Positions 2,426 to 55,480 are shown, numbered from the whole stretch's first letter. The stretch is DNA of 63,332 nt, filler included, from Octopus bimaculoides (GCF_001194135.2; 6 parts of 5 records of this genome joined end to end with filler, not necessarily neighbours in it), one strand, 5' to 3'. The notes: generated by a model from the sequence alone, not told the origin. Program-made: numbers and translations.

Positions 2426-2461
2426 GATCTGAAGAAGGAATTCTAATTCCGAAATATCATT
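2426..2461 (+). ncRNA. Minimal type-I hammerhead ribozyme motif
   Basis: GAT-CTGAAGA-A-GGAAT-TCTA-ATTCC-GAAA-TA-TC-ATT: intact core, perfect 5-bp helix II, palindromic ATAT helix III, AUC cleavage triplet and a 3-bp helix I. Confidence 0.65.
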
Positions 2462-2590
2462 GGACTACAGTTTACCAAGTTACAACAGGTATACAGTCCA
2501 TTTTTTGTTCTATATTGCATTGTTATACCTTCCTAAACTTTTTATTCTTTACAAACGATACACAATGCTTCAAGCGAACTACAATACTCT

Positions 2591-2627
<37 letters not shown>

Positions 2628-3177
2628 CTTTATATTTCATTTCATTTCTGAGCTATTTGTGGAAGTGAAAATTACAGATGTTTATTATGACATTTATTCT
2701 GTAAAACTGAAGTGAAACTAGAATGACTAAAGCCAGGGAAATGGTTGCCTGTATGGTTAGGTCATTCACAGTGATGCAGCTTCTGGTTTGACCCTGCCGT
2801 GTGGTACCCCAGGTAAACATCTTATTCCATACACTCAGATTGAACAATGTCGGGTGAGTGAAATTTGGTATAGAAACTGTGCAAAAGCCTGTTGTGTGTG
2901 TGTGAATATGTAAATGTGTGTATGTGTGTGTCTTTTTATACCAAGTGTCTTAACATTGACACCACCTCAGCACTGACATTATGTCCCCTCATAATAAAAC
3001 ACCTGACAATACAAAAATGTCTAATGAAATAAATTGCTCGAATGACAAAGAGGGGTTGGCATTAGGAATGGCATCAGGCTGTAGAATACTGTCACAAGAC
3101 GAAGGGCCATATAACATGTGCTAGCATGGAAGAAACTGCACCTAAATATGATGATGATGATAATAAGGCACATGGAT

Positions 3178-3217
<40 letters not shown>

Positions 3218-3240
3218 ACGGGCTCCTACATATGTATGTG

Positions 3241-3637
3241 TATAGGCGCAGGAGTGGCTGGGTGGTAAGTAGCTTACTTACCAACCACATGGTTCCGGGT
3301 TCAGTCCCACTGCGTGGCACTTTAGGCAAGTGTCTTCTACTATAGCCTCGGGCCAACCAAAGCCATGTGAGTGGATTTGTTAGACGGAAACTGAAAGAAG
3401 CCTGTTGTATACACATATATGTGTGTTTGTTTCTGTGTCTGTGTTTGTCCCCCCAACATTGCTTGACAGCTGAGACTGGTGTGTTTATGTCCCCGTAATT
3501 TCGTGGTTCGGCAAAAAGAGACCGATAGAATAAGTACTAGGCTTACAAAGAATAAGTCCTGAGGTCGATTTGCTCAACTAACGGTGGTGCTCCAGCATGG
3601 CTGCAGTCAAATGAGCAAGACAAATAAAAGAATAAAA
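3241..3637 (+). mobile_element. tRNA-derived SINE family A (internal TA/TG microsatellite)
   Basis: TAGGCGCAGGAGTGGCTG...GGTTCAGTCCC head; body AAAGCC.TGTGAGTGGATTTG; 3' GATAGAATAAGTACTAGG...GGTGCTCCAGCATGG. It recurs more than 15 times in the window. Confidence 0.85.
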
Positions 3638-3861
3638 TATGTATATACATAGTGTGTCTGTGTGTGTGTGTGTGTGTGTGCGTATTTCCTCTTTGATAGT
3701 AATTTTATATTCTCCTCAAATCAAGGCTCTTTTGAGAAGTTAATGGTCACCATTGAATAATAAATATCATTTTGACTCTTTTACTATTATCGATTCCTTC
3801 ATTCAAACCATATTTAGTGCACACCAAGCAAGACACATCTGATACATACATACATATATAC

Positions 3862-6900: not shown

Positions 6901-8214
6901 CCCTTTTTTTTATATCTAATTTCTTGATATGAAGCTACAATGTCTTGCAACATATTCACATTCCTTGTATCACCATATTTACGTTTCACTTGCTTTATGT
7001 CATTATTTTTTATGTTACTTTTTCTTTAAACAAATTACAAAAAATAAATGAATAAATAAATAAATGAATAAATACATAAAAAACAATCAAATGCAATTTT
7101 TATTTTAAGAACTGAAAAACTTACTATATGTTTTTAAAAATGTTATCATTAAATAATCTTTACTTTTTATGCATCTTCTGATTTTTATAACATCCTCTGA
7201 ATATTTTTATCCTGATGACTTTTTTTCTTTTCATAAGAAAAAGCTTGGTGAAACTATTGTGAGAATCTCACCACCACCATCACCACTGCCATCATCATCA
7301 GCATCATCATTGTTTGTATCTGTTTAATTGGTTTGTTTTCCCTATGCATTTGATTGGAGAATTCTGCAATACTGCTACTTTCCGTTTGACATCGTAGGCA
7401 GTGTAGTTACAATGCTTGCTTTGTTGCGATGTGGTTTCAAGTTCAGTCCTACTGCATGGAAACTTGACCCATTGTGTGTGTATAAATATATATATATATA
7501 TGTGTGTGTGTGTATGTTCTGAGCAGGACAAAAGTGCAAAGGGGGTCTTAAATTTACATTTTTTTGTTACACCTGGGGGGCTTCATGTGGGACCACAACC
7601 ATTGAAACTAGGTATTAAATATAACTCGATTTCAAACACACTAGCAAAAGTCTCCTAGCAAAACTTTTGCCCTTTTACACAAACATACAAGACATTCACA
7701 TTGATATAATCGTGTCTAAGATGGCCCTAGGCCCCAGACTTCTTAGAAAGGGAACAACCGATCATATAAACCCTAGTACTTTATTTACCGTCCTTGAAGG
7801 GACATTACGCAATTCTGACGTCAGTGAGATTTGATCACAGAATGTAAAGGGTTGAAAGAAATAGTGTAAGGCATTCTTTCACTGATGCTAATATTAATAA
7901 GAATTACAAGAATTTGTGCCACTGATATGCAGACATTTCTGTTCTTGGACAGCTCAGCTCATGCTCTTCCAATTGCTGAGGGTTCATTTATTCTTTCACT
8001 TGTTTCATTTATTGGACTGTGACCATGCTGGGGCACCACCTTCAATGGTTTTAGTCTATCAAATTGACTCTGGTACTTTTGTTTTGTTTTGTTTTTTTTT
8101 ATAAGTCAGGTAGTTATTCTATTATCAGTCTGTTTTGCTGAACCACCAAATTACAGGGGCATAGACAAACAAAAATCCGTTTTCAAGCAGTGTGGGAATA
8201 CACACGCACACACA

Positions 8215-9181: not shown

Positions 9182-9600
9182 CTAGGAGCGGCTGTGTGGT
9201 AAGTAGCTTGCTTATGAACCACATGGTTCCGGGTTCAGTCCCACTACGTGGCACCTTGGGCAAGTGTCTTCTACTATAGCCTCGGGCCGACCAAAGCCTT
9301 GTAAGTCGATTTGGTAGATGGAAACTGAAAGAAGCCCGTCGTATGTATATGTATATATATATATATGTATGTGTGTGTATGTGTGTGTGTATATGTTTGT
9401 GTGTCTGTGTTTGTCCCCCCAACATCGCTTGACAACTGATGCTGGTGTGTTTACGTCCCCGTAACCTAGCGGTTTGGCAAAAGTGACTGATAGAATAAGT
9501 ACTAGGCTTACAAAGAATAAGTCCTGGGGTCGATTTGCTTGACTAAAGGTGGTGCTCCAGCATGGCCACAGTCAAATGACTGAAACAAGTAAAAGAGAGT
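9182..9600 (+). mobile_element. SINE family A, full length
   Basis: Collinear with 3241-3637 and 59043-59418. Confidence 0.9.
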
Positions 9601-11752: not shown

Positions 11753-12098
11753 CCAAACACCCATACACAATATTACAGAATCTAACTTGGTATTTTTGCT
11801 CCACTCCATTCAAATGTTGATGTTCCTCTTTTCTTCTTGACTAATATTAATTAGGAAAATATATTAAAAAAAAAAAACAATTAAAAAACAAAGCATTAAC
11901 TAAATTAATTGAGATGCACTTCTTATCTATTCTGACCACACAAGCTCAAAGAATCTAACTTGAAGATATTGTTCCAAAAAATCCAGTGTTTTTGTTTCCA
12001 TCAAATGTTGCTTCTCTTCATTCTCTGCTTGTGAAATTCCATCTCTTAAAAAAAGGGTTATCTCCTCCGCACCTTTGAAATTATTACTGTTGTCTTTA

Positions 12099-12284
12099 TT
12101 CTTTTACTTGTTGTAATCATTTGACTGGGGCCATGCTGGGGCACTGCCTCTTAATCAAAGAAATTGACCCCTGGGCTTATTCTTTGTAAGCCTGGTACTT
12201 ATTCAGTCGGTCTCTCCTGCCAAACTGCTAGATTATATGGGGACATTAACACACCAAAGTCGGTTGTCAAGCAATGGTGGGGTA

Positions 12285-12315
<31 letters not shown>

Positions 12316-12500
12316 GATACACACACACAGATATATATATTATGGGCTTCTTTCAGTTTCCATTTACCAAATCCACTCACAAGGCTTTGGTCAGCCTGAG
12401 GCTATAGTAGATGACACTTTCTCAAGGTGCCATGCAGTGGGACTGAGCCTGGAACCACATGGTTGGGAAGCAAGCTTCTTACCACACTGCCACTCCTGGC
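12099..12500 (-). mobile_element. SINE family A, reverse copy
   Basis: Reverse complement of the family A consensus. Confidence 0.85.
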
Positions 12501-13484
12501 TGTTATTTAAGTCTACAAAACTAATATTTTAAACTTCATTTTTTTTTTTTCTTTTTCTGTCTTTGATTTTGACATTAGTTCTATCTTTGGTAAAATAACG
12601 AGTTTAGATTTCACCTGAATCAACTATGGAACACTATGTAGCATAGGATGGGACATGCAAGTACATACACACACTCACTGACTGTTTCAGTAAATTGTTG
12701 GTATCGTTAATAAATATTTATGAGATTTTTAACAAGTATTTATGACTATATCAACATTATGGCAGTATGAACATCAATTAGTCTGTATTAAGTTGGCACT
12801 TAACGTTTCGCAGAAAAATTTTGCACATTTCGACTTTTGATTCTGCTAAATAAATTTTAAAGAGTCAGCTTTTAAATGGTTTTTGGGCAACGAACTGTAT
12901 GTTTAAGTAAAACTAATCACAACGTGCATCTTTTTTTTTGTTGTATTTAGTCTTATTTTATGACTGATTCTCTAACCAAAATGATATAATAATTAGTATC
13001 TCCTGTTCCATCTCTTCCCATGTACACTCACATGCACAGACACATGCATATATACACCTATATACAGAACTGGTGTTCATGGTGGTGATTTTGTTAAAAA
13101 TTCTTTTGATAATGGTGGGCAAACTTTACATTGTTCAAATAATTACAGTTTTATTTCATCCTCTGGTTTAATGTTCTCCTCACCAGGTTTGCATGCATCA
13201 GTCAGAATTTGTTGAGGCAGATTTTTACTGGCCAGATGCCTTTCCTGTCACCAACGCTCACCTGTTTCCAAAACAGGGTATTATTTCCCTGAGACTGGAT
13301 ATGTTTTCATGAAAAGACAGGAAACAAGGGCACTGTTTGTATGATGGTGATGTTAATTTATAAGCCACACACATAACCCATGCACACACACACACATACC
13401 AATGCATACACATGTATGTATTTATCTATATCTATACTCACACGCACACTCAAACACACACACACACACCACACACACATATAT

Positions 13485-15299: not shown

Positions 15300-15960
15300 A
15301 TCATCGTTGTTGCCAACATCATGGTGTGTCCGTTTTCCGTGCTGGCCTGGGTTGGCCGGTTTGACTGAGGACTGGCAAGCCAGGCTCCAGTCTGATCTGG
15401 CAAGGTTCCTACAGCTGGATGCCCTTCCTAATGACAACCACTCCAAGAGTGTAGTGGGTGCTGTTTACATACCACCAGCATGGGAGCCAGTTAGGCAGTA
15501 CTGCCATCGATCATGTTCAAATGGTGCTTTTTATGTGCCACCAGCATGGGAGCCAATCAGGGGGTACTGGCATCAACTATGTTCAGATGGTGCTTTTTAT
15601 GTGCCACCAGCACAGGAGCCAATCAGGTTGCACTGGCATCAACCCACACTTGAATAATGCTTATTACATGCCACCAGCACAGGTGCCAGTGAGGTGGGAC
15701 TGGCATCGGCCATGACTACGATTTCACTTGCCTCAAGAGGTCTCCTCAAGGACAGCATATCGTCTGACAATTCAAGGGTGCTTTTAAATGGGCTGGTCAT
15801 GTGACACTGGCATCGGTCACAGCTGTGATCTCACTTTACTTGCCGAGTCTTCTCAATCACAATATATCTCCAAAAGTCTTGGTCTCCTGTCATTGCCTCT
15901 GTGAGGCCCAACATTCAAAGGTCATGCTTCACCACCTCATCCCATGTCTTTCTGGGTTAG
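15300..15960 (-). mobile_element. 5'-truncated RTE LINE copy
   Basis: The minus strand reads RKTWDEVVKHDL*MLGLTEAMTGDQDFWRYIVIEKTRQ, then the tandem AAAAGCACC 3'UTR and a short (GAT)n-like tail. Confidence 0.85.
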
Positions 15961-16732: not shown

Positions 16733-17394
16733 AATTTGCACATTATACTTATATATTGGATATTTCTTAGATTAGCATCATGTGTAAAATTATTGAATCT
16801 TTATTGTCGGTGAGAATACTGTCCCACTTGATCTTTGGTTGGATTTTCTTTTTGTGAATACTGCATCAATACATTACACTTTACCTGCACAAAAGTAACT
16901 ACTTGTAGGTACTGAGCGGATATCTCTATATCTGCATCTATCTCTGTCTGTCCATTCAAATGCATCAGTATTTGTTCAGGTTGCCTGTTTTTGAATAGAA
17001 AATTCTTCACAAAGCAGTGATTAATCTGATGAACTATTTGAAGTTATCTTTGGAACGAAAAATGATTTATTACGATTAATCTGATTTTATAGGCTTGAAA
17101 TACCATTTAAAAAAAATATATTTTGTTATAGAAAGACTGAATAACTCATCTTTATCACCATTTTACATCTACTTTCCCATGCCTCAATGGGTTTGACAGT
17201 TTTTCCGAGGTAGGATTTTATGGCCTGTTGCTAATCCTTTGTTGTATGTATTCTAAAATTGGGATACACTCAGTAAGATAGTAAGGTTAGATAGTTAAAA
17301 TAATATTTATTTACAGTTGTATATTTAAGAGATGAGGAATTATTTACATTATTTACATTTGACAGATATTTGTCCTAAATCTTGTTTGTTGTTA

Positions 17395-17438
17395 ACACAA
17401 CATTTCGGCTGATAGACCCTCCAGCCTTCATCAGGTGT
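17395..17438 (-). ncRNA. Minimal type-I hammerhead ribozyme motif
   Basis: The minus strand reads ACAC-CTGATGA-A-GGCTG-GAGGGTCTAT-CAGCC-GAAA-TG-TT-GTGT: intact core, 5-bp helix II and 4-bp helix I. Helix III is ATGT here and ACGT in the mirror copy. Confidence 0.75.
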
Positions 17439-17486
17439 GTTGTGGAAATTTCGAACCTGGGTTCTCATTCCTAAGGTATTTTTCGA

Positions 17487-17530
<44 letters not shown>

Positions 17531-17782
17531 TCACTGCCTGGAATCGAACTCGGAATCTTGGTGTTAGTAGCCTGTGCTCTTAACCACTATGCCACATGCC
17601 TGTGGGCAATTATGGAGTGAATTTTAGGGCTTATAAATCTATTATTTTTCTATCCTTCTGGTATTAAGGAAAGATAGGAAAATATTAGATTTATAAGCCC
17701 TAAAATTCACTAATAATAATAATAACAACAACATCAAAAAATACCTTAGGAAATAAGAACCCAGATTCGAAATTTCCCCAAG

Positions 17783-17826
17783 ACATCTAATGAAGGCTGG
17801 AGGGTATATCAACCAAAACGTTGTGT
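17783..17826 (+). ncRNA. Degraded mirror copy of the 17395-17438 hammerhead
   Basis: ACAT-CTAATGA-A-GGCTG-GAGGGTATAT-CAACC-AAAA-CG-TT-GTGT, with core substitutions (CUGAUGA>CUAAUGA, GAAA>AAAA); probably inactive. Confidence 0.6.
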
Positions 17827-18125
17827 TAACAACAAACAAGATTTAGGATAGAAACGGTGTAGAAGCCTATATATTGTATGTGTGTGTGTGTGTGTTTTAG
17901 TATTTGTGTTTGTCTCTTCCTCATTGCTTGTCAACCAGTGTTAGTTTGTTTACATACTTGTTACTTAGTAATTTAGCAAAGATTAATAGAACAAGTACTA
18001 GACTTATTAGAAATAAGGCCTGTGGTTGCTTTATTCAGTTAAGCTCTTCAAAGCTGCAGTTCAGTGACTGAAACAAGTAAAAGATAAAAGATTAGAAAAT
18101 AACCAAAAGCATCTGACCATAGAAT

Positions 18126-18480
18126 CATCATCATCATCATCATCATCGTTTAACATCCGTTTTCCATGCTAGCATGGGTTGGATGATTTGATTGAGGACT
18201 GGTGAACCAGATGGCTACACCAGGCTCCAATCTGATTTGGCAGAGTTTCTACAGCTGGATGCCCTTCCTAACACCAACCACTCCGAGAGTGTAGTGGGTG
18301 CTTTTATGTTCCACCGGCACAAAGGCCAGTCAGGCAGTACTGGTAACGGCCACGCTCAAAATGATGTATTTTACGTGCCACCTGCACAGGAGCCAGTCCA
18401 GTGGCACTGGCAAAGATCTCGCTCGAATGACTCTTCATGTGCCACCGGCACAAGTGCCAGGAAGGCGACGCTGGTAACGA
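18126..18480 (-). mobile_element. RTE LINE 3'UTR copy
   Basis: Same (CAT)n-CGTTTAAC...CAGCTGGATGCCCTTCC body as the other copies. Confidence 0.8.
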
Positions 18481-19037
18481 TGCCATCTAAAAAAAAATAT
18501 AATCTCTCATCCATGACAGCATGGATTAGTGTATGTAAAACCTATGATGGCAAGGACAATTGCTATTGTTTGTACTCTTAAATGTATTTGTTTGAAAGAA
18601 ACAGGTTTAATTTCTCTCAGCTAGAATCATATTATTTAGACAGGAAATTAATTGGTTACATTGATATTTCATTTAGATTGTTAAATATTTGTAATGAGCA
18701 TTAAGATTGCCATGAATGTTTGAATTCAATAGAATGATTATACAGTTTTTGTCACTGTCTAGCAAATTATTTAATCACACTCATTAATTAGAATTCAAGC
18801 AGATATTACAGTTTATAAATTAGCTTTCATCGATGTTTATTCTTTCTTCTAATTATTCGATTTTGTTCGTTGGTTTGTGTGTGTGTGTGTGTGTGTGTTT
18901 TCTCTCCTGCTAACATCTTTGTCTTCTTGCCATTATTCCTCTTCGATTTTTAAAATTTTATTTGTGATGGTGCTCCAATATGCCATAAGCAAATTGTCTA
19001 AAACTGTCGAGGAAAAAAAGATGGGAAATATATATAT

Positions 19038-26968: not shown

Positions 26969-27566
26969 AAGATAGATGTTAAAAGATAATGAAGATAATG
27001 ATATATATTATGCATATATATTTGTATATATGTATGTATATTCATATATTATGTATTGAGTTAACAGATTAGATTGGGAGAATCTCTATATTGAAAACAC
27101 TTCGTAGCTTAGTAGCGCCCAAATGATTTGAACGTAGATTCTGAAATCTTTACCAAGGACCAAGTCAGCAGGGTAAAGAATGGTTATAGCGGGAATCCAA
27201 GTGAACAGATATGGAGACAATCGATGCAAATAAACAGATAAAAAGCCTTCAGTCTGATATATACAATATATATTCATGTAAATAAAGAAAATACAAAGAC
27301 TGCAAAATTCCCGGATGACTAACATTCAAGTATAAATATAGATATATATTTATACTTGAAGGTTAATCATCTGAAAATATATTCCTGTATATCAAACCCA
27401 AGGAGTTTTATCTGTTTATTTGCATTATTGCGCATGTATCTATGTATTATGTATGAGTGTGTTTATTTTCATTAGATTAGAAATGAGTTGTGAATGAGTT
27501 TAAATATGAAAATATTCAAACAACTTAGAGAAATGATTGTGAAATTTTATTTATGAGCCAAAAACA

Positions 27567-27633: not shown

Positions 27634-28500
27634 AGACGTGAAATGGTGTTTGATGCTGCGTCTGGCAGAAATAAGCCATTTATAAAAATGTAATGAAGTA
27701 GTTTAACTCCTTTGTGACTATATCTTTAATGAAATACTCTTCCTGCTTGTTTTGATTAATTTTAGAAATAATTAAGACAGAGGATTTAGGAAAAATAATG
27801 AAAATTTCCAATTTAATAAATTAGTATTTGGAATGCATCATAAAAAAAAAGGACAAAACATATTTTGAAAATTATGACAGGAATATGTGTCTAAGTATAA
27901 AGACTTTGAAATACAAGCTTCGGTATCATCGAATCAGATAGGCTGGCATCAAGATGATTAATTTTATTGTAATTTGCATGAAGCTTTACAATGTATCTCG
28001 GTGACATTAATGTTTGGAGGATAAAAAAAAAAAAAAAAATGAGGAATTTGGGTGAAGAATGAGAGAAAACATGTAGTTGATGTCATTAAACAACCTTATG
28101 TAGGTTCTTTAATGACACTGTAATATTTTACGGAAAAAAACCTTCTTTTGAAATAAAATAATTTAAAAAATGTATTCAAAGAGTTCATAGAAATCTGTTG
28201 TTACTGGCCGGTGATTCTTGTGTGTTGTATAAAAGATATGGTATTCATGAAGGAATTTAACATAATAGAGATCCAGCTGGAGAGGCATTGCTACATTGTA
28301 GAATTGTCCAAAGATGTTGGCAGAAGTAGCCTGACTAGTATTAAATATCTACTATAATAATACTCTTGTGTATTTCTCTGTCACAACATATGAAGGAGAA
28401 AGAAAGGGGTGATGGCAAACTTGGTAGTAGGATGATGGAAGTTCTATGGTGAAAAAAAAAATCAAACAGCATTTCAGCTCTGTGTGAGTATATGTCTCTG

Positions 28501-28747: not shown

Positions 28748-28847
28748 NNNNNNNNNNNNNNNNNNNNNNNNNNNNNNNNNNNNNNNNNNNNTTAATTAAT
28801 TAANNNNNNNNNNNNNNNNNNNNNNNNNNNNNNNNNNNNNNNNNNNN
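28748..28847. other. Artificial scaffold linker N44-TTAATTAATTAA-N44
   Basis: Exactly 100 bp; the 12-mer is self-complementary and gives stops in all six frames. Confidence 0.95.
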
Positions 28848-32330: not shown

Positions 32331-32658
32331 GAATTTATATATATATATATGTGTGTGGGTGTGTACGCAGGTATGGATATATATAGAGATATATCTATGT
32401 AAATGAGTAACAAAGATGTACAGGTGTCAATTCATTACGGCCATTTCAGGCTGCTCCTTTAATTGATTAATGAAAACATTACTTTCATTTGAAAGAAACC
32501 GTTCTTGTCAGGTGACCGCATAGACTCCAATCTAAGCATATAACCATTTTTTGAAACATATTTAGATCGACGTAGCTAAGTGCCTCCATCTAAGTACCTA
32601 ATTCAACTAAATCTTAATTATAGATATATTCATATGTAGATAAGTAAATCGTGGTACA

Positions 32659-33021
32659 CCGTCTGTTACGACGACGATGTTTCCAGTTGATTCGATTCAA
32701 CGGAACAGCTTGCTCGTGAAATTAACGTGCAAGTGGCTGAGCACTCCACAGACACGTGTGCCCTTAACGTAGTTCTCGAGGAGATTGAACATGACACAAA
32801 GTGTATCAAGGCTGGACCTTTGAAATACAGGTACAACAGAAACAGGAAGAAAGAGTGAGAGAAAGTTGTGATGAAAGAGTACAGCCGGGTTCGCCACCAC
32901 CCCCTGCCGGAGATTTAGATGTTTTTGCTCGATAAACACTCACAACGCCCGGTCTGGGAATCGAAACCGCGGTTCTACGACCGCGAGTCCACTGCCCTAA
33001 ACACGGGACCATTGCGCCTCC
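32659..33021 (-). mobile_element. tRNA-derived SINE family D
   Basis: Head GGAGGCGCAATGG...GTTTCGATTCCCAGACC; collinear with 49254-49632. Confidence 0.85.
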
Positions 33022-33043
33022 ACACGATAGGTAGACAGGTATG

Positions 33044-33925: not shown

Positions 33926-35803
33926 TTTTTCAACAAAGCCACGCCTAACACTGTAGGTATTCATTTTGTGTAAAGTCTTTTATAGCAACTTTTAACAATA
34001 ATACCCTAAGTATCACTAAATTTTAATGCGAATAATTTCAACCTGAATATCCGGAGGCAGTAACTGGTTTAGCGTACTTGAAACAAGAACACAGACACTC
34101 TTTAAGCATCTTTCGAAAGTTGGTGCACTTGTTATTTGTTTTTCTGTACATCACCACTCGATGACAAGCAAAGAGAAGAAAAAAATCGGCTTCGTTTTCT
34201 ATGTCAAATATTATGTAAGCATCTGCTCTATATAAAATATGGAAAATATTGCATATCTTTACGTAAGTGTATAAATTGCATATCCCTATCTCGTAAAGAA
34301 TACATATGCGTAATGCGTATATNNNNNNNNNNNNNNNNNNNNNNNNNNNNNNNNNNNNNNNNNNNNNNNNNNNNNNNNNNNNNNNNNNNNNNNNNNNNNN
34401 NNNNNNNNNNNNNNNNNNNNNNNNNNNNNNNNNNNNNNNNNNNNNNNNNNNNNNNNNNNNNNNNNNNNNNNNNNNNNNNNNNNNNNNNNNNNNNNNNNNN
34501 NNNNNNNNNNNNNNNNNNNNNNNNNNNNNNNNNNNNNNNNNNNNNNNNNNNNNNNNNNNNNNNNNNNNNNNNNNNNNNNNNNNNNNNNNNNNNNNNNNNN
34601 NNNNNNNNNNNNNNNNNNNNNNNNNNNNNNNNNNNNNNTATATCGTAAAGATTGCATATGTACGTGTCAAAACGGATGAGTTATTACTTGCCAGCGTTAT
34701 TTCTCCGGTGTGGAAAGTTATAAATTAGACTAGTTAGCAGTCTTAGCAGAGTGTTTGATCAATAAATCAAAATTAGCAATATAAGTTGAGAGAAATTCTG
34801 GTAGATTTCGGTGTTACAGAGATTTATCCTCGGAAAGATAAATAGATTATCTGGCATTAAGGTTGTTATTTATCTTAAGCAAATACTTCATAATTTCTAA
34901 AGAGGAAAATATCGTGACATATATTAGGCTTGCCTAGTAGTATTAGTAGTTGTAATACATTGCCATTACCGCTCTCGAAACTTCTGTTTTTTGTTTGGAG
35001 TACTACAATTGGAAAAACACTGTTTAGAGATTACATCACACATACGTACACGCATACATACACATACACACACACGTGCTCAGAGTTTTAAAAAAAAAGT
35101 CATTTTGAATGAGAAAGTCCTCAGATAGAAAACCTTCATTGCTTAGAGCTAATGACTGTCTTAATAGCCGGCTTGTAATAATACGGAAGATAATGAGAAT
35201 ATGATCATACTCTGAAGAGAAAACATGGGGAATAGACATCGATTTAACTTCACTGAAATGTTTTATATTTTGTCAATTATGTTTATTAAGGATGATACAG
35301 AAAGGGGGAAAAAAAGACTAGATCAGGACGTATCTGATACTGGCATAAAGTAGACATTTGAAAATATACTTCGTATTCCATATGTAGGATGTTGAACTAA
35401 CCAGGATGTTAAGAATGAAGTAGTTGGGGAAAATACAGACTAGGAATTTTTTGTGTCGGAAAATAGAGTGGTTTGGTCAGGCATAAATCAACTCCTAATA
35501 AAAGAAGCATAAGTAGTTCAAGAACGGATGGTTGAGTGACATCCTGGGACGGATAGGGAGGAAGATGGTGGATAACATAAGGCTGGTTGATGACCTGGAG
35601 ACATGGTGGGAAGTATTCATTGGAATCTTCTACCATTTTTATTTCTTTTTCAAGACGAGTATGTTCTAGTTCTAGTGTGCCTTTCGCTCGGCCGTCAGGT
35701 TACAATCACTCCTACAGATATCGTACATGGTTTTAGCGACAATATCGTTTCATGCGAACTTTTTTGGACAGACACCGATGACGTGAGTGATATCTTTCAC
35801 AGT

Positions 35804-36105
35804 AAGGCGGTGAGATGGCAGAAACGTTAGCACGCCGGGCGAAATGCTTAGCGGTATTTCGTCTGCCGTTTCGTTCTGAGTTCAAATTCCACCGAGGTCG
35901 ACTTTGCCTATTATCCTTTCGGGGTCGATAAAGTATCAGTTACGCACTGGGGTCGATATAATAGACTTAATCCCTTTGTCTTTGTGTGTTCCCTCTATGA
36001 TTAGCCCCTTGTGGGCAATAATGAAATAAGAAACGTTAGCACGCCGGGCGAAATGTTTAGCGGTATTTCGTCTGTCTTTCCGTTCAACGTTCAAATTCCA
36101 ACGAG
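35804..36105 (+). mobile_element. SINE family C, CpG-intact, plus partial tandem second copy
   Basis: AGAAACGTTAGCACGCCGGGCGAAATG occurs at ~35820 and again at ~36030. Confidence 0.85.
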
Positions 36106-36400: not shown

Positions 36401-37871
36401 GCACACACATACACACACACGCACACACACGCACGCGCGCACACACACACACATGGTGATTAAGTTCTAATATAACTCATCAAAGAAAAGTAGTTTAATA
36501 AACATCAGTGTGCGCACGCATGCGTGTGCGTGTGTATGCGTGCGCACGTTCTGTGCATACAGTGATTTTTATGCAAATAAAATCTTAATTTTCTTCTAGA
36601 CTTATAGTTTGAGTTATCTCCAAGCGAATAAATTCATAGCCATTGCACGTACTGTCCGTTTGTTAAGAGTAGATTAGTCGATGCAATTGTTCCTCAATAT
36701 ATTACTGCTATTCATTTTAGCGAACGTGTGGAAATTTAATATCAGATCTCAGACGAACGAAGCTACTCTACATATGATTTGACGTCCTTACCCACTCTGA
36801 TGTTTATTACACTCGTCTATCTTCTCTTCTTTGGTAAATAATATCATCTAATATGTACTTTAATATTATATATGTTCCATTAAATTATGCAGCAGAAAAC
36901 TATAGCTTTCTGATTTATAATCTTTATTTCGGTTTAGAAGTAAAACTTTTACAAGACCATTCATATACTCTTGTTGTTTAATTTGTGTCGTTGAAGCTGG
37001 AAATGGAAACTAAATTTCTCGTTAATATCGTGTAGGAAATATAGATTACAAATTAAATGGAAGTAGAATAGTTATAAGTGGCAATAGCCTACACTAAGTA
37101 GAAATATTGTTTGGAATATAAGTAAATGGAAATGAAGATACTGGAAGCTATTTATATTAATCCACGTTCTTATTTTATTGCACATCTTTGTGTTTTGCTG
37201 CTATTCCAATATCGATATGGGAAGGCGAGAACAATAAATTTTATTTTATTTGCACTGTAGTTATTTGCTTTCTCCTTTCATCATAAAGAAGCCAGTTTTC
37301 GCTATTCTTCTTACTTCGGGACAACTAAATGTGTTGTTTATTTATTTCAGTCTGGCTCTTTTAAGTTTTGTTGCTTCAACATTAGAGATATTTATGGGCC
37401 TCAAAATGAGTTTAATGAATTCAATACAATCGAGTGATTTCATCGTTTGAATATTTCTGTTAATTATAAGAAGCAATAACAGTTTTCAAATTTCCTTTTC
37501 TTAACAACTGTTAAGAAGTATGATTGTTCTTCGAATTTAGTTTTCCCAAATCTACATTTCTAATGAGCACTAATGATAGCCTCTATTCGACGATTCACTT
37601 TAAATGTAATTTCAAACCGGATCTGTCCTGAGACTATAAATAAATTGAAGTAAATAAACAGTGATTATTACAAGAAGTTTAATTCCAGTATAAGACCGAA
37701 CAGTTAAAATCTTCAAAACCTTCCCGATGTTTATCCTCTAAAAACAAACACGAATTAACTCACATGTGTGTACACATACACATACAAATACATATGCAAA
37801 CACACATATATTCACACAAACACACGTGCGCCCGCGCACGCAAGTACTCCCATCTCTAGCCTTACGAGATG

Positions 37872-37916
37872 CACACAGACCCGGGTCTCTTGGTAGTTTC
37901 CCGTCTTCAGTGTGTG
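37872..37916 (-). ncRNA. Type-I hammerhead motif, second family (one core substitution)
   Basis: CACACA-CTGAAGA-CGGG-AAACTA-CCAA-GAGA-CCCGGG-TC-TGTGTG: 6-bp helix I, palindromic ACCCGGGT helix III, GUC site, and GAAA>GAGA. Confidence 0.6.
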
Positions 37917-38213
37917 ACAAATCACCAAGTAGTGATGAACGCTCGTTCCACTCGCAAAATACTATATGCTTTTTCCAGCGACAAACTATCGTTGATCTCG
38001 AAAAAGGAGAAATTAGCTATATTAAATCTCTGAGCGAGAGTAAATAGTAACAGTACGGAATCGTAAAATATATTTGCCAACTAACTGTGGAAGTCCCAAA
38101 GAGGACGATGTTACTGTTGTTTTTAGCCCCATGAAGACATCTCCTGGTTAACGACACACTGTTTGTGTCCGATTAGTATTTGCGAGAGGGGGTCATCACT
38201 AACTGGTGATTAT

Positions 38214-38258
38214 CACACACTGAAGACGAGTAACCACCCAGAAACCCGAGTCTGAACA
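38214..38258 (+). ncRNA. Type-I hammerhead motif, second family (sister copy)
   Basis: CACACA-CTGAAGA-CGAG-TAACCA-CCCA-GAAA-CCCGAG-TC-TGAACA: core intact, helices eroded at different positions than in the 37872-37916 copy. Confidence 0.55.
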
Positions 38259-38871
38259 TTACGTAAGGCTAGAAATGGGAGCAGTGAACTCCTCTCGCAA
38301 ATACTAATCAGATACACATAGTGTGTCGTTAGCCAACTGGAGGAAATGTCTTCCTGGGGCTAAAAACAACAGTAACATCGTCATCTATGGGACCGCCACA
38401 TTTAGTTGGCAAATATATTTTACGATTCCGTACTGTTACTGTTTACCTCTCGCCCAGAGAGGAAAACAGAAACAGTGTGTATATATATATATATATGTAC
38501 TGACAGATATATATNNNNNNNNNNNNNNNNNNNNNNNNNNNNNNNNNNNNNNNNNNNNNNNNNNNNNNNNNNNNNNNNNNNNNNNNNNNNNNNNNNNNNN
38601 NNNNNNNNNNNNNNNNNNNNNNNNNNNNNNNNNNNNNNNNNNNNNNNNNNNNNNNNNNNNNNNNNNNNNNNNNNNNNNNNNNNNNNNNNNNNNNNNNNNN
38701 NNNNNNNNNNNNNNNNNNNNNNNNNNNNNNNNNNNNNNNNNNNNNNNNNNNNNNNNNNNNNNNNNNNNNNNNNNNNNNNNNNNNNNNNNNNNNNNNNNNN
38801 NNNNNNNNNNNGTGAGTGTGTTAAATAATAAGGCACTAAAAGAGAATGACCCTCCCCAGACGCAATGACAG

Positions 38872-44723: not shown

Positions 44724-45660
44724 TAAGGCCATCACATAAATAATGCGGTTTATTTTATACTTCTTTTATTTTTCAACATTAAGTTAAAAAAATTCTCTTT
44801 TAATCTAAAATATACTCGCCTTCATTTTCTACAATTCTCTTCCATCTATATGCTGGGTGGGACATCGTTTCCCATTCAAGCTGCTCCAGCCTTTGGAATG
44901 TCATCCTCACTGCATGTGGCTGAGCATTTTCCTGATGGAACAACAATTTTCCTCTTGAAACCCAAAATGGTCGTTTTTCTTCTAGTGCTGACTTAAGCCG
45001 CTCATGTTGCTCACAGCAGATCTCCATTGTTATCGTTTGATTTGGGTTTAAAAGTTCAAAGTGGACTAAACCTTTCATATCCAAGCCAACAGATAGAAAC
45101 TCCTTAAGTGGTGAAGACCTTCTTTAACCGGGGGTGCCGGTGTTTCTCCTTTCCCTGCCCACAGTCTTCGGCGCTTGACATTTTTATAGAGAACCCATTT
45201 CTCGTCACCAGTCACTAATCGGTTGAAAAATGGTTCATTCATGAGACGTGGCAGCAAAGTAGAGCACACAAACACTCACAGCACGCGATTAGACTCAGAA
45301 CGTTTGTGAGGAACCCGTTGACCTAATTTGCTGATTTCTCCGATGACACGCAGGTGTCGATGAATAGTTGAGTGACCAAATCCAAGCTTGTCTGCTAGTT
45401 CCTCAACAGTTACAATGGGATTTTGTTCCACCTGGATTTGCAGGACGTCCTCGTCGAGCTCTTCAGATCTTACAGTACGAGGCTCGTTTTCTAGGCTGTA
45501 GTTTCCGGTTCAGAATTTCTGGAACCACCATTGTCACTGGCTTATTTTCCGATCCCCATATACTGCATTAATATTCCTCGCACTTTCCGTAGTGTTGTTG
45601 CCTTTATTGAACTTATTGAAGCAAAATATACCGAATATGCATTGTCACTTCCATTTTATC
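44724..45660 (-). mobile_element. Degenerate mariner (Tc1/mariner) transposon with internal deletion
   Basis: Frameshifted transposase: HTH region (NKGNNTTESARNINAVYG...WWFQKF), QRVPHK (WVPHEL-like), GDEKWVLY, HQENAQPH, then HPAY fused directly to RWKRIVENEGEYILD*. The SPDLAP/third-Asp segment is missing. A TIR-like end lies near 44724-44750. Confidence 0.9.
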
Positions 45661-48849: not shown

Positions 48850-50200
48850 TGTGTGCTGTGTGTGATGGATGTGTGTGTTCTCTTGCGATATATAGCAGTC
48901 CACTTCCACGTCTTCTTGTTCATTGCCATTGTTCTTCAAACGAATCTTATACATCATCTTTATGTATTCTTTGATGACTTTCTTCCACTTCATCTTTCTA
49001 CCTGCTCTTCCTTTTTCATCCCCTCTTATAGAATATATTCTGTAGTTGATATCCTGTATCTATTGTTTTCTGTTCATGCTCAATTACCTTCCCACATAAC
49101 TCTTGTTTTTTTTCTTCTTAATTCAATAGTTCTCATTCCTATTTTATCTCTACACATCTAATTCTATCTTTCAACAAAACATTCATCCTTCTTATCATGA
49201 CATATTGCATTGTTCTCATTTCGATTTTCATCCTCTTTCTTATCTTACATGTTGTTGGCACTCCGTCGCTTACGACGTCGTGGGTTCCAGTTGATCCGAT
49301 CAACGGAACAGCCTGCTCGTGAAATTAACGTGCAAGTGGCTGAGCACTCCACAGACACGTGTACCCTTAACGTAGTTTACGGGGATATTCAGCGTGACAC
49401 AATGTGACAAGGCTGACCCTTTGAATTACAGGCACAACAGAAACAGGAAGAAAGAGTGAGAGAAAGTTGTGGTGAAGGAGTACAGCAGGGTTCGCCACCA
49501 TCCCCTGTCAGAGCCTCGTGGAGCTTTTTGGTGTTTTCGCTCAATAAACACTCACAACGCCCGGTCTGGGAATCGAAACCGCGATCTTATGACCGCGACC
49601 TGCTGCCCTAACCACTGGGCCATTGCGCCTCCACTATCTTACATATACTACTCCCATATGCCAATATTGATAAAACACATTGGTTGAACACTTTCCTTAA
49701 TGATAAATGTAATATTTTTGTACCAAAATATATTTCTGCGAGTGAGAATATTTTTGGAGGAAAAACTTGTTTGCAAACGGTTCCATCCCACTATTTTCCT
49801 TTTCCTCAATGCTTCTTTTATAACTGACATTCATATCTGACTTACGAATTTACAAATATTCAATTTCTCTATTATTGCATTTTCCATTTTTATTTATATC
49901 ACAAGTGTCACAGATTGTCGGTTATTTGGGCTTCCCCTGGTGCTTGTTTAACTCTACTATTTTACTTGGCCTAATAATTTGGTTTAATGTTCTAATTTTT
50001 CCAATTGCATTTTTGGTGATTGTTATATCATCTGCAAACCTTAGACCCATCAAAGACGCCTTGTTTACCTTTATTTGACTTGGCTCCAAATCTATATTGC
50101 TGAATATAATTTTTTTTTCTTTACCGCACTGAGTCGGTGAATATCTTCCCATTGATGGAATCGTGGAATCTCTCCGTCCACTACTCGTTGTATGAATGCC
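48850..50200 (-). mobile_element. Decayed RTE (BovB-like) LINE, RT and C-terminus, interrupted by a SINE
   Basis: Remnant motifs in order: GLRFADDITIT...KPK, LRKVFNQCVLSILAYGS, RRMNVLLKDRIR and GRAGRKMKW. Confidence 0.7.
49254..49632 (-). mobile_element. SINE family D with 10-bp target-site duplication
   Basis: TATCTTACAT occurs at 49241-49250 and 49635-49644; the element is inserted inside the RTE remnant. Confidence 0.9.
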
Positions 50201-50679: not shown

Positions 50680-51273
50680 GTCATAACAATCACCTCCACC
50701 ATCAAAACTACCATCAGCGCCACTACAACCACCAGTACCGGCACCACGTCACCACCACTACCATTTCTATCACCACCATCATCACCACCACCACTAACGT
50801 CATCGTCATTATTATCGTCATCGTCGTTGTCAGTGGCGGCAGTGGCGGCGGCGGCGGCGGCGGCGGCGATGACATCTCCATTGACACCGCCATTTGCAAA
50901 CTGCAGCTGCAAAAATATTTTAAGAATAAAAATAGTAAGGAAACTTCCGCCAGATTCCAGTGTCATAAATACCAGTTCTAGTCTTCCTAATGTCGTGGCC
51001 ATTATAGTGGGCGTCGGGCGTCGTCGTCGTCATCACCACCACCACTACCATCACCATCACCACTATCACCATCATCATCGTCGTCGTCGTCGTCGACATA
51101 ACCACTGCCATCATCATCATCAGCAGCAGCAGCATCATCATCATCGCTACTGCTACCAATAGCGCCATTTTCAACTCCACCGTCGCCATTTTATTACTGT
51201 TTCATTTCATTTTCTCCGCCTTATTTCTGTAAGAGCGGACAACTACCTGCTGTCAAGGATCTCACACAGTCTC

Positions 51274-51340
<67 letters not shown>
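50680..51340 (+). repeat. Trinucleotide mosaic (ACC/CAT/GGC/CGT) ending in (AGT)n
   Basis: Direct reading. Confidence 0.9.
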
Positions 51341-54300
51341 ACAACTTGGCAGAATCTTTAGCATACCGGACAAATTCCACCTGAGTCGACTTTATCTTTC
51401 ATTCTTTTGGGGTCAATAAAATAAACACTAGCTAAGCACAGGGGTCGAAGTAATCGAGTTAACCCCACCCCTGAAATTTGAAACCATCATCATCATCAAC
51501 CCCATACCATCCGTCTTCTCTACCATATTTACCATCACAACCACTAGTCAACAGTGTTGTGTCTGTTATCACATCTTTAAGCCATTAATTTCATCAATAC
51601 CTACACAAACGCTGATTTGTTTTTCTCACATTAAAATAATTAATAAATATTATCAGCAGGAACACAAACTTCTACCACCACCACTGCCACCGCCCCTCCA
51701 TCGCCACCACCATCACCACCATCATCTCTACCACCACCATCACCTTTACCGTTTCCATTATCAACACCACCACCATCAGCATCATTTCCCATCATCACTG
51801 CGACGACCAACATATATACCACTGTTACTATCTCGTGCTGTGGAGCTCACTCTCGGCTATGTTGTCTTTGATGGTAGGCCGACCCGGTTGTGGTTGACCA
51901 AGGGCTTAAAATTCTGCGCCTTCCACCATCACAAACATTGAGAATCACCATAGCACATCAACAATAAGCAGTGCCAAATGTAGACCTGGTAAGGTTTTAA
52001 AGCAACGTTTAGAAGGCTTAGGGGGTTCCGAGTTGAAAAATTCCATCTAAAGGACGCACAAAAATTAAAAACATTAATAAATCCATCCATCGAGCTATTA
52101 TCTCTGCCCAATTCCTGAGAGGGTCTTAGGGGCCAGAATCCTCAGATTCCTCATCACAACAGTTCTATAAGAAAGCAACCGTCATTGGACTTCCCGACTT
52201 GATTCCCAAACATGACCAGCTGAGACCGTTAAGATTATCCCACCATCTTGTGCTTAGTTGCACGTGACACTTCATAGGGGCCTCTGTCATTGGTGGTAGG
52301 AAAGTGGGACCAGACACATGACCCGAATTCATACAGCAGTGTGAAATTCTGCTAAATATATGCAAGGGTCACGTGGTCCTTGGGTATATTTAACAGGGGT
52401 CCATATTTACCACATGTGACATTTAACTGGGTGACGGATTATGTCTACCTGGGAATAAAGAACAAAACCTACATCACAACCACGACCAACACCACCACCA
52501 CCACCCGTTCAGGAGGAGTGGTCACTTATATGCTACGGTAAAAGGGGAACCGGACCCAAAGAGTTATAAGACTCGACACAGTTATATCCAGGAGGACTTG
52601 CTTTAATGTTTGCTGGTGGAATGACGAAAATGCGAGAACACTTACTGACAAACCTTGATGTTCAATACTTCTGCAATATGTCCGTCTCACGCCTCGAAGT
52701 TCAAGAGGCTGAGTTTACCTGGATTCCAGATTTTGAAGTTGCTTAGGCTGAGAGTACAAAAGCCTCTCACATCTGAATGGTGCGCCAGCCTGTTGAAGGG
52801 GTTACAACGGTGCCAATAGATCTCTTTTTTCATTTTTTCTCTTTCGTGAAAAGGCCGGTCAAATTTGAAACACGTCATGTAAGTTCAAGCCCGTTATAAG
52901 CCGTAAAATACGTTTTCCCACATGCTGGTTCACAGTACAATCGTCCATGAAACTGGAAACTAAATAACAACAAAAAAGAAAAAAGACTAACCAACATACA
53001 GAGGAAATTGTTGTTGCTTAGCTTCGGGTCATTTCTGAACAAGAAGATTTTACATCAAAGGTATTTGTGAATGTATTTTTATTATTATCTAGAACTACAT
53101 TTTTTAATGTGTTCTTTCCTCCTCTAAAGCAGTAGGGTAGTGGGTCTCAAACGGAGCGCCGCAAGACATATCAAGACTAAGCGCGAACTTAAAGCAAAAT
53201 ATAATTAAAAGTTTTCTGAAAATCCATATTAATGTTTGAGTGTCTTCAAAAACGCTGGGATCGACTTCCACTTTCATCTTTCTGGTGTTGATAACACATT
53301 GATCCTGAATCGCCAAAAGGAACCTCCTCAGTCGAGTTCCAAACCAGGCAACACACATGTCGATGTGACTCAGGATATTGATTTTTTTATTCATTATTCA
53401 TGCTATAATGTTACTCTGGGAATTATAGTCAAGATGGCGAGTTGGCAGAATCGCAAGACCGTCTCGTACGATTCGTTCCAGTTTCTGTCCATTCCGAGTT
53501 CTAATACAACTGAGGAGTCACAGCTCCGTTTCTATCTTTTCATTATACACAAGTACAATTCTTGGTTCCAAATTTTGGCACAAGGCTGGCAATTTCGGGT
53601 GCGGAGAGGAGGAGGTCGATTATATCGACTCCAGTTTTCAGCTGGTACTTATTTCATCGGCCTCCAAAGATTGAACGGCAAAGTCGACCTCGGTGGAATT
53701 TGAACTCAGAACTAAGACGGAAGAAACGCCGCTAAGCATTTTGTCCGGTGTGCTAACGATTCTACCTTCGGCACCTAAAGCGGAAGCAGCTAAAAGAAGT
53801 AAATGTGTGAGTTGAGAGAGATAAACTGTAATGTTTCAAAGGACTGTTCCCTCGATCTTAGCGCTCCATAAGACTGGAACTGGTTTGGATTTTCAAAGCG
53901 TTTGGGTTGAGAGAACAAACCTTCCTGACTAAACAGGATTTTAATCTATAAGGGAGTTCAAGCCCAGGTGTCACCGGTATTCGTTTTCAGCCAAGTATAC
54001 TGGAGCAACATGAGATGGAATGCCTTGCTCAAAGACACTACGCGCCACCCTGTTCAAGAGCCCACTATCTAACGACCATGAGCCCCAACCCGCTAACCAC
54101 TAAAACCACGCTTTTTCACACTCTCAGAAGTGACAGGTGAGTGTTCTGTGAACCACTGAAAATTTTGGGACGGGATTAAGAACCGTTGTGTAGCAATCCC
54201 AGCGCCTCCTGGCGGCATGCTAGAATCTATGCTTAATATCATTGGTCGACAAGGAAGAGCGATGGTGTCGGTGTCTGGGCATAAAAAACCATGCTCTTCT

Positions 54301-54951
54301 TTGCCACACATGTTATAACAAACATTATTCTGTATTATTACACGACAAACAATTAGTTAAGAACCAGATTAGTGAGGTAGAGTGAAACAGTGATGGTATT
54401 TGTTTTATAGTCAATGAAATTTAATTTACTGTTGGTTAAAATAAGAGTGAGTGGTGAATTCATGTTTACATTGAAGCAAAGTGAAATGTGTGGAGATTAA
54501 AAACAGAATCACTCAGAAAAAAAAAAACAAGAGCATATGTGAAAGAAAAGAAAAACTGGATTCTCGTTTGCTCTTTATTTCTTTCTTCTCTTTTTTTATT
54601 TTTTGCTTTTTAATCTTCTTTTATATGTAATCTTTACATCTGCACGTTTCACTATTTTTATAGTTCTTTCAGATAAATTTAATTAACTGGATCCGAATTC
54701 AAGGAAGCGGAACTAAATTGTCCAGAGTGAATTAGCGTTGTACTGCCTTTTACGTCGTCTTCACATTCTAACAGCTTTTTGAAAGGAATCGATGACGTTC
54801 TGTAAAGAGAGAGGGAGACAGAGTGACAGAGAGAGAGAGAGAGAGAGAGACAGAGCGACAGAGAGAGAGAGAGACAGAGCGACACAGAGAGAGAGAAAAA
54901 AACGATAGAAAGAGAGGGGGGAAAAACAAGAGAAAGGTGAGAGACAACACG

Positions 54952-54990
<39 letters not shown>

Positions 54991-55159
54991 AAGCACCACG
55001 CACACAGAAGCGCATACCTGCTGACATGCGAAAAGGTGTTATATGTGAGTGTTTATATGCATATATACATTTGTATATGTACATGTCTGTGTGTGTATAT
55101 GCCTTCTTGTGCGTGTGCACGAAAGCACTATGTGTAATTGTTAATATGCGTGTATATGG

Positions 55160-55480
55160 AACAATGATATCCCGACGCTGTATGGGCTCCGTAAGGACCA
55201 CAAAGTAACAACTAATCCTGTAGTGGGACCACCATCAAGACCAGTCTGTGGAGCGAATGTCGCTAGTAACTACAGGATCTCCTACTTCCTCTCAATGATC
55301 ATACGCCCCATAATCCAGATGTCACCTGATGTCTGTGACAGCACGGAAGATCTCCTCAGCAGGATCAACGACTGCAACAACACTTGCAACCTGACAGGGT
55401 GTATAGTGGGTAGCATGGATGTGGTATCACTATACCCATCTATCGACGTGGATTTTGCAGTGGAAAAGTGCGTGGAAATG
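55160..55480 (+). mobile_element. Penelope-like element reverse transcriptase fragment (open frame, runs into gap)
   Basis: The stop-free frame reads IPTLYGLRKDHK...GPPSRPVCGAN...ISYFLSMIIRP...STEDLL...IVGSMDVVSLYPSID. This matches the PLE RT motifs (P.LYGLPK.HK, PxRPI, STxDLL, SxDVxSLYPSI). Confidence 0.8.

Follow-up and report, generated by a model that had tools for sequence, protein, structure and literature searches.

Hammerhead motifs in an Octopus bimaculoides window as likely truncated, partly inverted ends of unrelated Penelope-like families

Minimal type-I hammerheads are known from the pLTRs of Penelope-like elements (PLEs) and, in the examined portions of Cervera and de la Pena 2014 (PMC4209133), they are mostly single copies from truncated PLEs. 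They have the same core as the motifs described below, together with an extra base before helix II, G10.1-C11.1 and a palindromic 15.2-16.2, and these portions explicitly describe opposite-strand pairs 100-700 bp apart, like the pairs seen here, while containing none of the octopus families. The PLE signature given in the consulted parts of Craig et al. 2021 (PMC8557442) comprises 5' truncation, an inverted 5' copy and an optional 30-40-bp tail, and an octopus PLE hammerhead is already present in File S2 of that study. Poseidon PAc of Anolis carolinensis (Frangieh et al. 2024, PMC11167929) has two RT start sites, and cleavage is unnecessary for its insertion in vitro. According to the available part of PMC6765202, the SINE-like elements SMalpha and Sjalpha of Schistosoma carry a Pol III-type promoter followed by a type-I hammerhead, SMalpha being tandem and non-coding with a canonical ribozyme. 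Animal non-LTR retrozymes are also short hammerhead-bearing repeats, for which PLE machinery and descent from pLTRs have been proposed (PMC7229834; 10.64898/2026.07.22.740005); they are defined by head-to-tail tandems with at least two ribozymes on one strand, of which we found none in the window, that is, the whole 63,332-nt stretch of Octopus bimaculoides DNA analysed here. Truncated, inverted pLTRs are a known arrangement, and retrozymes as Penelope derivatives are already in print. From the sequence comparisons presented here, we consider it likely that two or three unrelated PLE families left the five hammerhead motifs of the window as 3' ends (pLTRs) that are 5'-truncated and in part inverted. 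In each case an RT plus GIY-YIG protein of the family's own probably made the copies, and an RT fragment at 55160 shows no link to the motifs. The motifs would then be ordinary, octopus examples of a pattern published in 2014.

Hammerhead-like sequence is indeed present at all five places named in an earlier note on this DNA. However, a strict descriptor (CUGANGA, helix II of at least 4 bp, GAAA, palindromic helix III, UH and helix I of at least 3 bp) was passed by only two of the five, 2429(+) and 17434(-), and the other three are decayed partners that fail it. In the two passing motifs, helices I and II accompany the CUGANGA and GAAA-UH core, and 17787 is repaired by the majority letters of its family. 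The extra base between positions 9 and 10.1, G10.1-C11.1 and the palindromic helix III, which are traits of minimal PLE hammerheads of type I, are all present, bearing out the earlier assignment to the Penelope type. Less secure is the list of helix III palindromes (ATAT, ACGT and ACCCGGGT), some of which stand in broken copies (ACGT in 17787(+), ACCCGGGT in 37910(-)). The three contexts share no sequence when compared with one another, in agreement with the view that they are unrelated. Both hammerhead pairs are inverted, with their members on opposite strands (17.4-17.8 kb and 37.8-38.5 kb), so neither is able to dimerise in cis, and the dimer action envisaged earlier does not fit these loci.

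The motif at 2.4 kb stands apart from the two pairs in having no second copy:

2391..2409, plus strand: 19-nt duplicate of the 5' half of the 2429 hammerhead, adjoining an assembly gap
2426..2461, plus strand: minimal type-I hammerhead with core 2429-2435, an extra A, a 6-bp helix II and GAAA 2451-2454

Its helix III is ATAT, the predicted cut lies after 2458, and helix I is merely 3 bp long. This short helix and the single copy are what would be seen if the motifs were chance matches in AT-rich, repeat-rich DNA, and the bare core pattern is indeed common and not significant (7 matches in the window, with at least 7 in 6 of 100 shuffles). Rfam, moreover, returned only chance miRNA-hairpin matches and neither a hammerhead nor a tRNA family, whether for the whole window or for its sub-regions. 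We nevertheless regard chance as an extremely improbable source, because none of 150 locally shuffled windows yielded any match to the strict descriptor, and the two 38-kb copies have their defects at different positions and are complementary in this respect. For the 17.4-kb motif a chance origin was ruled out by the majority letters, which restore its core. None of seven short stretches folded better than shuffles as single strands, as expected for ribozymes lacking helix III.

The 17.4-kb locus is a head-to-head inverted insertion with the following parts:

17312..17660, minus strand: left arm of the insertion, from a high-copy family, with an ORF-end-like stretch, tRNA-like segment, (AAT)n, hammerhead and tail
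17312..17398, minus strand: tail downstream of the predicted cut, where family contigs have their 3' ends
17352..17468, minus strand: ATG-initiated frame through the hammerhead, possibly the start of a PLE ORF, frameshifted in this copy
17394..17439, minus strand: minimal hammerhead with intact core (core 17434-17428, GAAA 17406-17403, predicted cut after 17399)
17489..17526, minus strand: (AAT)n tract that separates the tRNA-like segment from the hammerhead region
17533..17604, minus strand: tRNA-like segment (A box 17594-17584, B box 17549-17541), an internal, fixed part of the family
17660..17843, plus strand: right arm with an ORF-end-like frame 17661-17696, a decayed hammerhead 17782-17827 and a tail cut short

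In two DNA runs from two organisms, 25,078 and 35,965 contigs fall on this element, and their summed depth, which is not a copy number, is about 1e6 compared with about 45 on the flank. The majority letters of the family restore the hammerhead core and helices (shares of depth in run X4: 17789 G 94%, 17786 C 94%, 17812 G 92% and 17402 G 58%), and the core is thus retained in the consensus of a high-copy family, a point on which the earlier note had made its proposal depend. In the copies seen here, 17787(+) has CTAATGA and AAAA where the core motifs should stand, and helix III of 17434(-) reads ATGT as compared with ACGT in the family majority. The 3' ends of the family gather at two positions, 17339 with 249 contigs and 17312 with 173 in run X4, and their flanks are heterogeneous. 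They lie 27 nt apart, resembling the Penelope 'tail', for which 30-40 nt have been described; this comparison was made for the 17.4-kb family only. Copies that are 5'-truncated and have an inverted partner, a trait of EN+ PLEs, are present at both 17.4 kb and 38 kb. The inverted structure, the abundance and the two 3' ends together match the PLE signature, and also Poseidon PAc with its two RT start sites. The likeness to Poseidon PAc (PMC11167929) extends to an ATG frame that overlaps the hammerhead, a downstream tail delimited by two 3' ends, targets rich in AT, and insertion into its own pLTR. However, Poseidon PAc has a known full ORF, whereas for none of the three hammerhead families of the window was a full-length ORF seen, only ORF-end-like frames.

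The frame at 17661-17696 terminates in VLRKDRKILDL-stop. A loose end shared by 53-71 contigs (agreement about 0.8) continues the family 5' of 17660 and prolongs this frame by ten codons without a stop, ending in IWEP by hand translation, which may be like the C-termini of Penelope and Poseidon. Searches with the ATG frame recovered no long PLE protein (0 matches, 15 matches of 51-297 aa and 5 matches of 325-371 aa, the last five without an RT or endonuclease family). The C-terminal motifs were absent from 107 fetched proteins and from the supplement text of Craig et al., in which protein rows are incomplete, and none of six short motifs from the window was found in that supplement (PMC8557442). 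In viral contigs, degenerate scans for a Poseidon-type and for a Hydra-type RT motif each gave 0 matches, as did a search of metagenome and viral contigs for the 17.4-kb hammerhead as an exact DNA motif.

Compared with the hammerheads in the examined portions of PMC4209133, the 17.4-kb family has in addition a tRNA-like segment with A and B boxes upstream of the ribozyme. No other strict pair of this kind exists in the window, 3 of 200 shuffles contain one, and the boxes lie 100-160 nt upstream of the hammerhead core. The segment is colinear with other SINE heads in the window, although this is borderline, with 1 of 30 shuffles tying, and its T-arm matches a phage tRNA-Gln at E=2 only. ARAGORN found no tRNA in the window, and a lowered threshold gave 171 uninformative calls. 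The earlier note correctly placed the segment in this family, of which it is a fixed part, but the description 'tRNA-headed' does not hold. The element does not start at a tRNA-related head, as a SINE would. Depth falls from the hammerhead (3.5e6 + 2.6e6) to the A box (0.97e6) and then stays similar 5' of the segment (0.47e6 + 0.41e6), where the family runs on into its shared loose end. 'Non-coding retroposons' is likewise unsupported, since two of the three contexts are apparently preceded by the end of a PLE ORF.

This segment raises the possibility, which we consider doubtful, that the 17.4-kb family represents a short PLE derivative that is non-autonomous. It would retain a vestige of the ORF end, be transcribed by Pol III from the A and B boxes and be trimmed through its hammerhead, and a tail-recognising PLE RT would copy it in trans. 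As one of the most abundant octopus repeats, it would then be a Penelope-dependent equivalent of a SINE, an idea we hold to be unlikely, in which a tRNA-derived Pol III promoter captured by the pLTR drives a short RNA with hammerhead and RT start sites, and trans copying of this RNA by a PLE protein yields tens of thousands of dispersed, inverted insertions. This possibility draws on the position of the strict boxes, on the very high abundance in two organisms and on the absence of four consecutive T on the sense strand between 17660 and 17312, an absence that a Pol III transcript requires. Some contigs join the tRNA-like segment to the hammerhead side (X4 records 29 and 30; X15 record 13), and among the 15 inversion joints listed, with 194 more outside the listing, six reach with one side into 17594-17608, where the segment has its 5' border. 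The lack of a long protein in the ATG-frame searches would also agree with it, as would, weakly, the presence of the family in two runs guessed to be RNA. However, depth does not drop at that 5' border and shared sequence continues beyond it, no cluster of heterogeneous loose ends occurs there among those listed (6 per run, with 1318 more), and the right arm has no tRNA-like segment. Moreover, cleavage would part the promoter from the tail, so that the cut RNA would be unable to recreate the whole unit without tandem copies.

The order of promoter-like segment and hammerhead recalls the Schistosoma elements, but compared with SMalpha the 17.4-kb family is dispersed and inverted, has PLE-type ends and a minimal ribozyme, and carries its promoter-like part after an ORF-end-like stretch. 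A Pol III-type module inside a hammerhead-bearing pLTR may be a new part. No published description of such a module in PLE pLTRs was found, the repeat libraries (Repbase, Dfam, SINEBase and that of O. vulgaris from 2026) lying outside the search. SINEs are usually partnered with LINEs, and if a Pol III element were copied by a Penelope-type protein, this partnership would extend to a third class of retroelements. A PLE-dependent SINE would also offer a natural short substrate for an in vitro assay of the PAc type, and would point to a PLE origin for part of the large 'unclassified SINE' fraction in octopus annotations.

The second inverted pair, at 37.8-38.5 kb, is nested:

37847..37964, minus strand: second family, its 3' part, carrying a hammerhead of Hydra type (core at 37910-37904, GAGA in place of GAAA through decay, ACCCGGGT as helix III)
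37965..38285, plus strand: 5'-truncated copy of this family with a probable endonuclease C-terminus 37980-38027, 3' UTR and hammerhead 38216-38256
38285..38460, minus strand: 5' part of the copy on this strand, which the plus-strand insertion likely separated from 37847-37964

The plus-strand copy is flanked by an imperfect 22-29-nt duplication (37936-37964 / 38285-38307), and its hammerhead, 38220(+), has an intact core with one mismatch in helix II and one in helix III. An extra base on both sides of helix II and a 4-bp helix III give this hammerhead the layout of the Hydra clade (Craig et al. File S2), the same as in the PLEs of that clade, including Hydra-1_Obim of Octopus bimaculoides, in the consulted parts of PMC8557442. 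The probable endonuclease end and the microsatellite neighbourhood are also alike, but the 38-kb sequence itself differs from Hydra-1_Obim. A Hydra-like endonuclease-end motif of 16 residues, taken from Fig. S2 of Craig et al. and written after the sequence had been seen, has one match in the window and none in 200 shuffles; upstream of the 38-kb hammerhead there is probably an endonuclease C-terminus. Proteins of the Hydra clade are marked by DKT and RWK motifs in the RT and by an EN that lacks CCHH.

The earlier note had placed all these families under the RT frame at 55160:

55157..55480, plus strand: 5'-truncated fragment of a Neptune/Nematis-type PLE RT, 108 codons, ending at an assembly gap

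This open frame is real and PLE-like, being up to 90% identical to Octopus vulgaris proteins, though it is a fragment, for which Neptune/Nematis serves as a joint label of the two clades. Outside the window itself, a CX2-5CxxC linker as well as a GIY-YIG at the C-terminus are present in close relatives such as P0003 (89% identity across the fragment) and in longer relatives. With the fragment, Pfam gave nothing significant (RVT_1 was weak in one of five long relatives), a PDB search gave weak bacterial RT matches only, and a profile built from 20 relatives detected no further PLE fragment in the window.

That all three hammerhead families are non-coding parasites of this one Neptune-type RT is, in our estimation, very unlikely. 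Their co-occurrence within one 63-kb window would speak for it, but with 190 families, PLEs account for 6.83% of the O. vulgaris genome (PMC13282606 supplement), so such co-occurrence is expected. Minimal hammerheads of their own occur in 4 of 28 loci of RT relatives, 369-680 nt past the matched region, which speaks for the truncated-pLTR reading. In favour of the single system, L003, among the closer metagenome relatives, has a hammerhead that shares the ATAT helix III with 2429; a preprint also argues that animal retrozymes are PLE derivatives (10.64898/2026.07.22.740005). However, the 28 Neptune-type loci have no DNA similarity to any hammerhead site, and the ends of Neptune-type proteins are unlike the ORF-end-like frames of the window. 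The three contexts, moreover, have no common sequence, differ in hammerhead type and resemble different PLE clades, with the 38-kb family looking like the Hydra clade. Nothing connects the 55160 fragment to them, and the proposed single system mobilised in trans gives way to the case that the earlier note had itself set against it, solo or truncated pLTR remnants, which fits best.

For the truncated-pLTR reading, published PLE work suggests how such copies might arise. A source element in partial tandem would be transcribed from the upstream pLTR, and the PLE protein would nick AT-rich or microsatellite DNA. Reverse transcription would begin in the tail downstream of the hammerhead, at either of two sites, and so produce two 3' ends. 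Synthesis would usually halt early and often switch strand, so that a short 3' piece remains, paired with an inverted partner. The hammerhead may cut the tandem precursor RNA in source elements, either as a dimer or with the help of a protein, and is predicted to be idle in the dispersed, inverted and CpG-decayed copies. In the 17.4-kb family, the tRNA-derived A/B-box segment and an (AAT)n tail would reside in the 3' UTR of the master element and be copied along. This segment is most simply an old insertion of a simple SINE that became fixed in the master, and its use as a promoter is putative.

In other records, a family related to that at 17.4 kb was also encountered, and its apparent tandem arrangement, as in retrozymes, weighs against the truncated-pLTR reading. 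The DNA behind it gave no match in viral contigs and two chance matches in prokaryote genomes, and its four proteins, judged by peptide spacing, point to head-to-tail units of 120-129 nt.

The hammerhead motifs are genuine ribozyme motifs, they and the insertion structures around them both being of known kinds, and the five that the earlier note had read as one retroposon system probably represent the truncated ends of separate Penelope-like element (PLE) families. A strict type-I descriptor scan, with 150 local shuffles as control, matched two of the five, at 2429 (+) and 17434 (-), and none of the shuffles (0/150); that the motifs arose by chance is thus highly improbable. Only these two pass the scan; the other three can still be recognised as their partners or relatives despite damage to the core or the helices. 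The short palindromic helices III ACGT and ACCCGGGT are indeed present, but both sit in copies with damaged cores. The hammerhead at 2429 stands alone: it is minimal and intact, its helix I measures 3 bp, and beside a gap lies a 19-nt partial duplicate of it. Searches of the window with Rfam and ARAGORN matched neither the hammerheads nor the tRNA-like segment at 17.4 kb. Cervera and de la Pena (PMC4209133) describe opposite-strand hammerhead pairs and single motifs, as found here, as truncated PLEs. Two more strings, at 7205-7253 (+) and 28984-29016 (-), resemble a hammerhead except for a single mismatch in the core; they have AGCT and AGCGCT palindromes, with a 7-bp helix I at 7212, and may be older copies or chance occurrences.

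The insertion at 17.3-17.85 kb consists of head-to-head arms, ~90% alike, with a junction near 17660.
17312-17660 (-): left arm; in 5' to 3' order an ORF-end-like stretch, ~30 nt, the tRNA-like segment (A and B boxes both strict), the (AAT)n tract, the ATG at 17468, then the hammerhead and the tail 3' of its predicted cut
17457-17449 (-): second B-box-like motif, imperfect, with the (AAT)n tract on one side and the hammerhead on the other
17660-17843 (+): right arm; tRNA-like segment absent, ribozyme decayed
17373-17379 and 17837-17843: tail variant common to both arms, differing from the commonest contig form

Because both arms carry this variant, their sequences suggest one template or subfamily behind the entire inverted insertion. 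We compared all contigs of four runs (two DNA and two guessed to be RNA, from two organisms) with 17061-17870. In the two DNA runs 25,078 and 35,965 contigs matched, and the summed contig depth, which is not a copy number, was 0.4-6 million on the element versus ~45 on the flank, pointing to tens of thousands of copies. In one run (X4) the majority letters restore the core position G5 and helix I (94% of depth each), helix II (92%) and the ACGT palindrome (58%); the weaker positions are CpG sites, as neutral decay predicts. The 3' ends cluster at 17339 and 17312, with unrelated flanks.

Since contigs span the (AAT)n tract, the tRNA-like segment belongs to the family. No drop in depth marks its 5' border, and a continuation beyond 17660 is common to 53-71 contigs, so the segment is internal; the family, previously described as tRNA-headed, runs on 5' of it. 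The frame at 17661-17696 ends VLRKDRKILDL-stop, and the contig continuation, read by hand, keeps it open for ten more codons, by themselves not significant, to end in IWEP. This ending presumably resembles Penelope/Poseidon C-termini. No tRNA module inside a PLE pseudo-LTR (pLTR) was found in the literature searched, within which the internal module is an undescribed variant that merits a genome-wide check. Octopus tRNA-SINEs are named without sequences in PMC4758252 and PMC8967140. The 2026 O. vulgaris annotation gives PLEs as 6.83% in 190 families (PMC13282606); its supplement does not mention ribozymes, and its Zenodo library may include these families.

The left-arm ATG frame passes through the ribozyme, as in the Poseidon PLE of Anolis carolinensis (PAc; PMC11167929). 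An O. bimaculoides entry matches the frame across the hammerhead at 80% identity. Protein searches with the ATG frame returned only short spurious models and fusions, and no long protein for the family. This last result, the absence of a T4 run over 350 nt of the sense strand, and the position of 6 of the 15 joints listed, at the segment's 5' border, speak for a Pol III-driven non-autonomous derivative in the 17.4-kb family, which we nevertheless consider unlikely; a Pol III promoter with a hammerhead is already known in Schistosoma SMalpha (PMC6765202, PMC8490949 and PMC6155905). In O. sinensis, the gene model LOC115224785 isoform X2 (P0104) opens with ~36 residues from the family's ATG frame, after which comes a receptor-like, cysteine-rich protein; the element may provide an alternative first exon.

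Among the records returned by the ATG-frame searches, four from ENA contigs (P0087, P0089, P0090 and P0099) repeat a related motif every 40-43 residues, which corresponds to head-to-tail units of 120-129 nt, a predicted dimer-competent, retrozyme-like arrangement. Judging by their peptides, helix II has a C-G pair in place of the U-A of the 17.4-kb family. PMC7229834 put forward retrozymes as partners of PLEs, a view argued for in a preprint (10.64898/2026.07.22.740005).

The 38-kb family is present in three pieces.
37847-37964 (-): first minus-strand piece
37965-38285 (+): plus-strand piece
38285-38460 (-): second minus-strand piece

The minus-strand pieces have an imperfect stretch of 22-29 nt in common, from which it is likely that a plus-strand copy inserted into a minus-strand copy at 37.85-38.46 kb. 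Each of the two ribozymes is broken at a position of its own, and the layout of both fits the Hydra-clade table of Craig et al. 2021 (PMC8557442 File S2), which already includes another octopus hammerhead, Hydra-1_oBim. A frame at 37980, which precedes the plus-strand core by 240 nt, resembles the Hydra endonuclease end (PMC8557442 Fig. S2); a regular expression composed after seeing the sequence matched only this frame in the window and none of 200 shuffles.

The RT fragment at 55157-55480 starts abruptly after TA/CA-rich sequence, ends at a gap and shares up to 90% identity with predicted proteins of Octopus vulgaris; it is of the Neptune or Nematis type (PMC8557442). In four of the 28 metagenome loci of its relatives, the ORF is followed by a minimal hammerhead whose helix III is ATAT, ATCGAT, ATATAT or ACTAGT, and by its matching ATAT the 2429 motif could possibly be a pLTR of this clade. 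These 28 loci have no DNA in common with the window's ribozyme sites, and no sequence similarity links the three hammerhead contexts among themselves or to other parts of the window, which argues against the single system proposed earlier; that one RT serves all hammerhead families is very unlikely. In the Neptune-type relatives, hammerhead-like 3' motifs with deviating cores lie at L002:2508-2550 and L001:4975-5030, two of the metagenome loci.

Structure, abundance, ends, core conservation and the internal position of the tRNA-like segment are established. If the elements behave like known PLEs, reverse transcription would be target-primed and start from the two tail sites, copies would terminate early and switch strands, and the ribozyme would be active only in tandem source RNA. 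The suggested dimer action is not supported at these loci, as opposite-strand pairs cannot dimerise in cis. Insertion of PAc in vitro did not require cleavage (PMC11167929).

The window is animal DNA with gaps, rich in microsatellites and SINEs, and the protein matches of the RT fragment and of the frame across the 17.4-kb hammerhead place it in an octopus genome. Some of its SINE-like families have tRNA-type heads, and none contains a hammerhead.
3242-3646, 9183-9599, 12095-12554, 15327-15714, 18148-18481, 32652-33023, 35801-36105, 49256-49634, 55830-55960 and others: abundant SINE-like families
27224-27425: nested inverted repeat, ~200 nt, MITE-like
28444-28784: 37-nt minisatellite, ~7 copies, adjoining a gap
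44803-45123 (-): Mariner-type transposase fragment (PF01359, E 9.5e-08)
56044-56646: young 241-nt tandem repeat, two copies 99% alike and one partial
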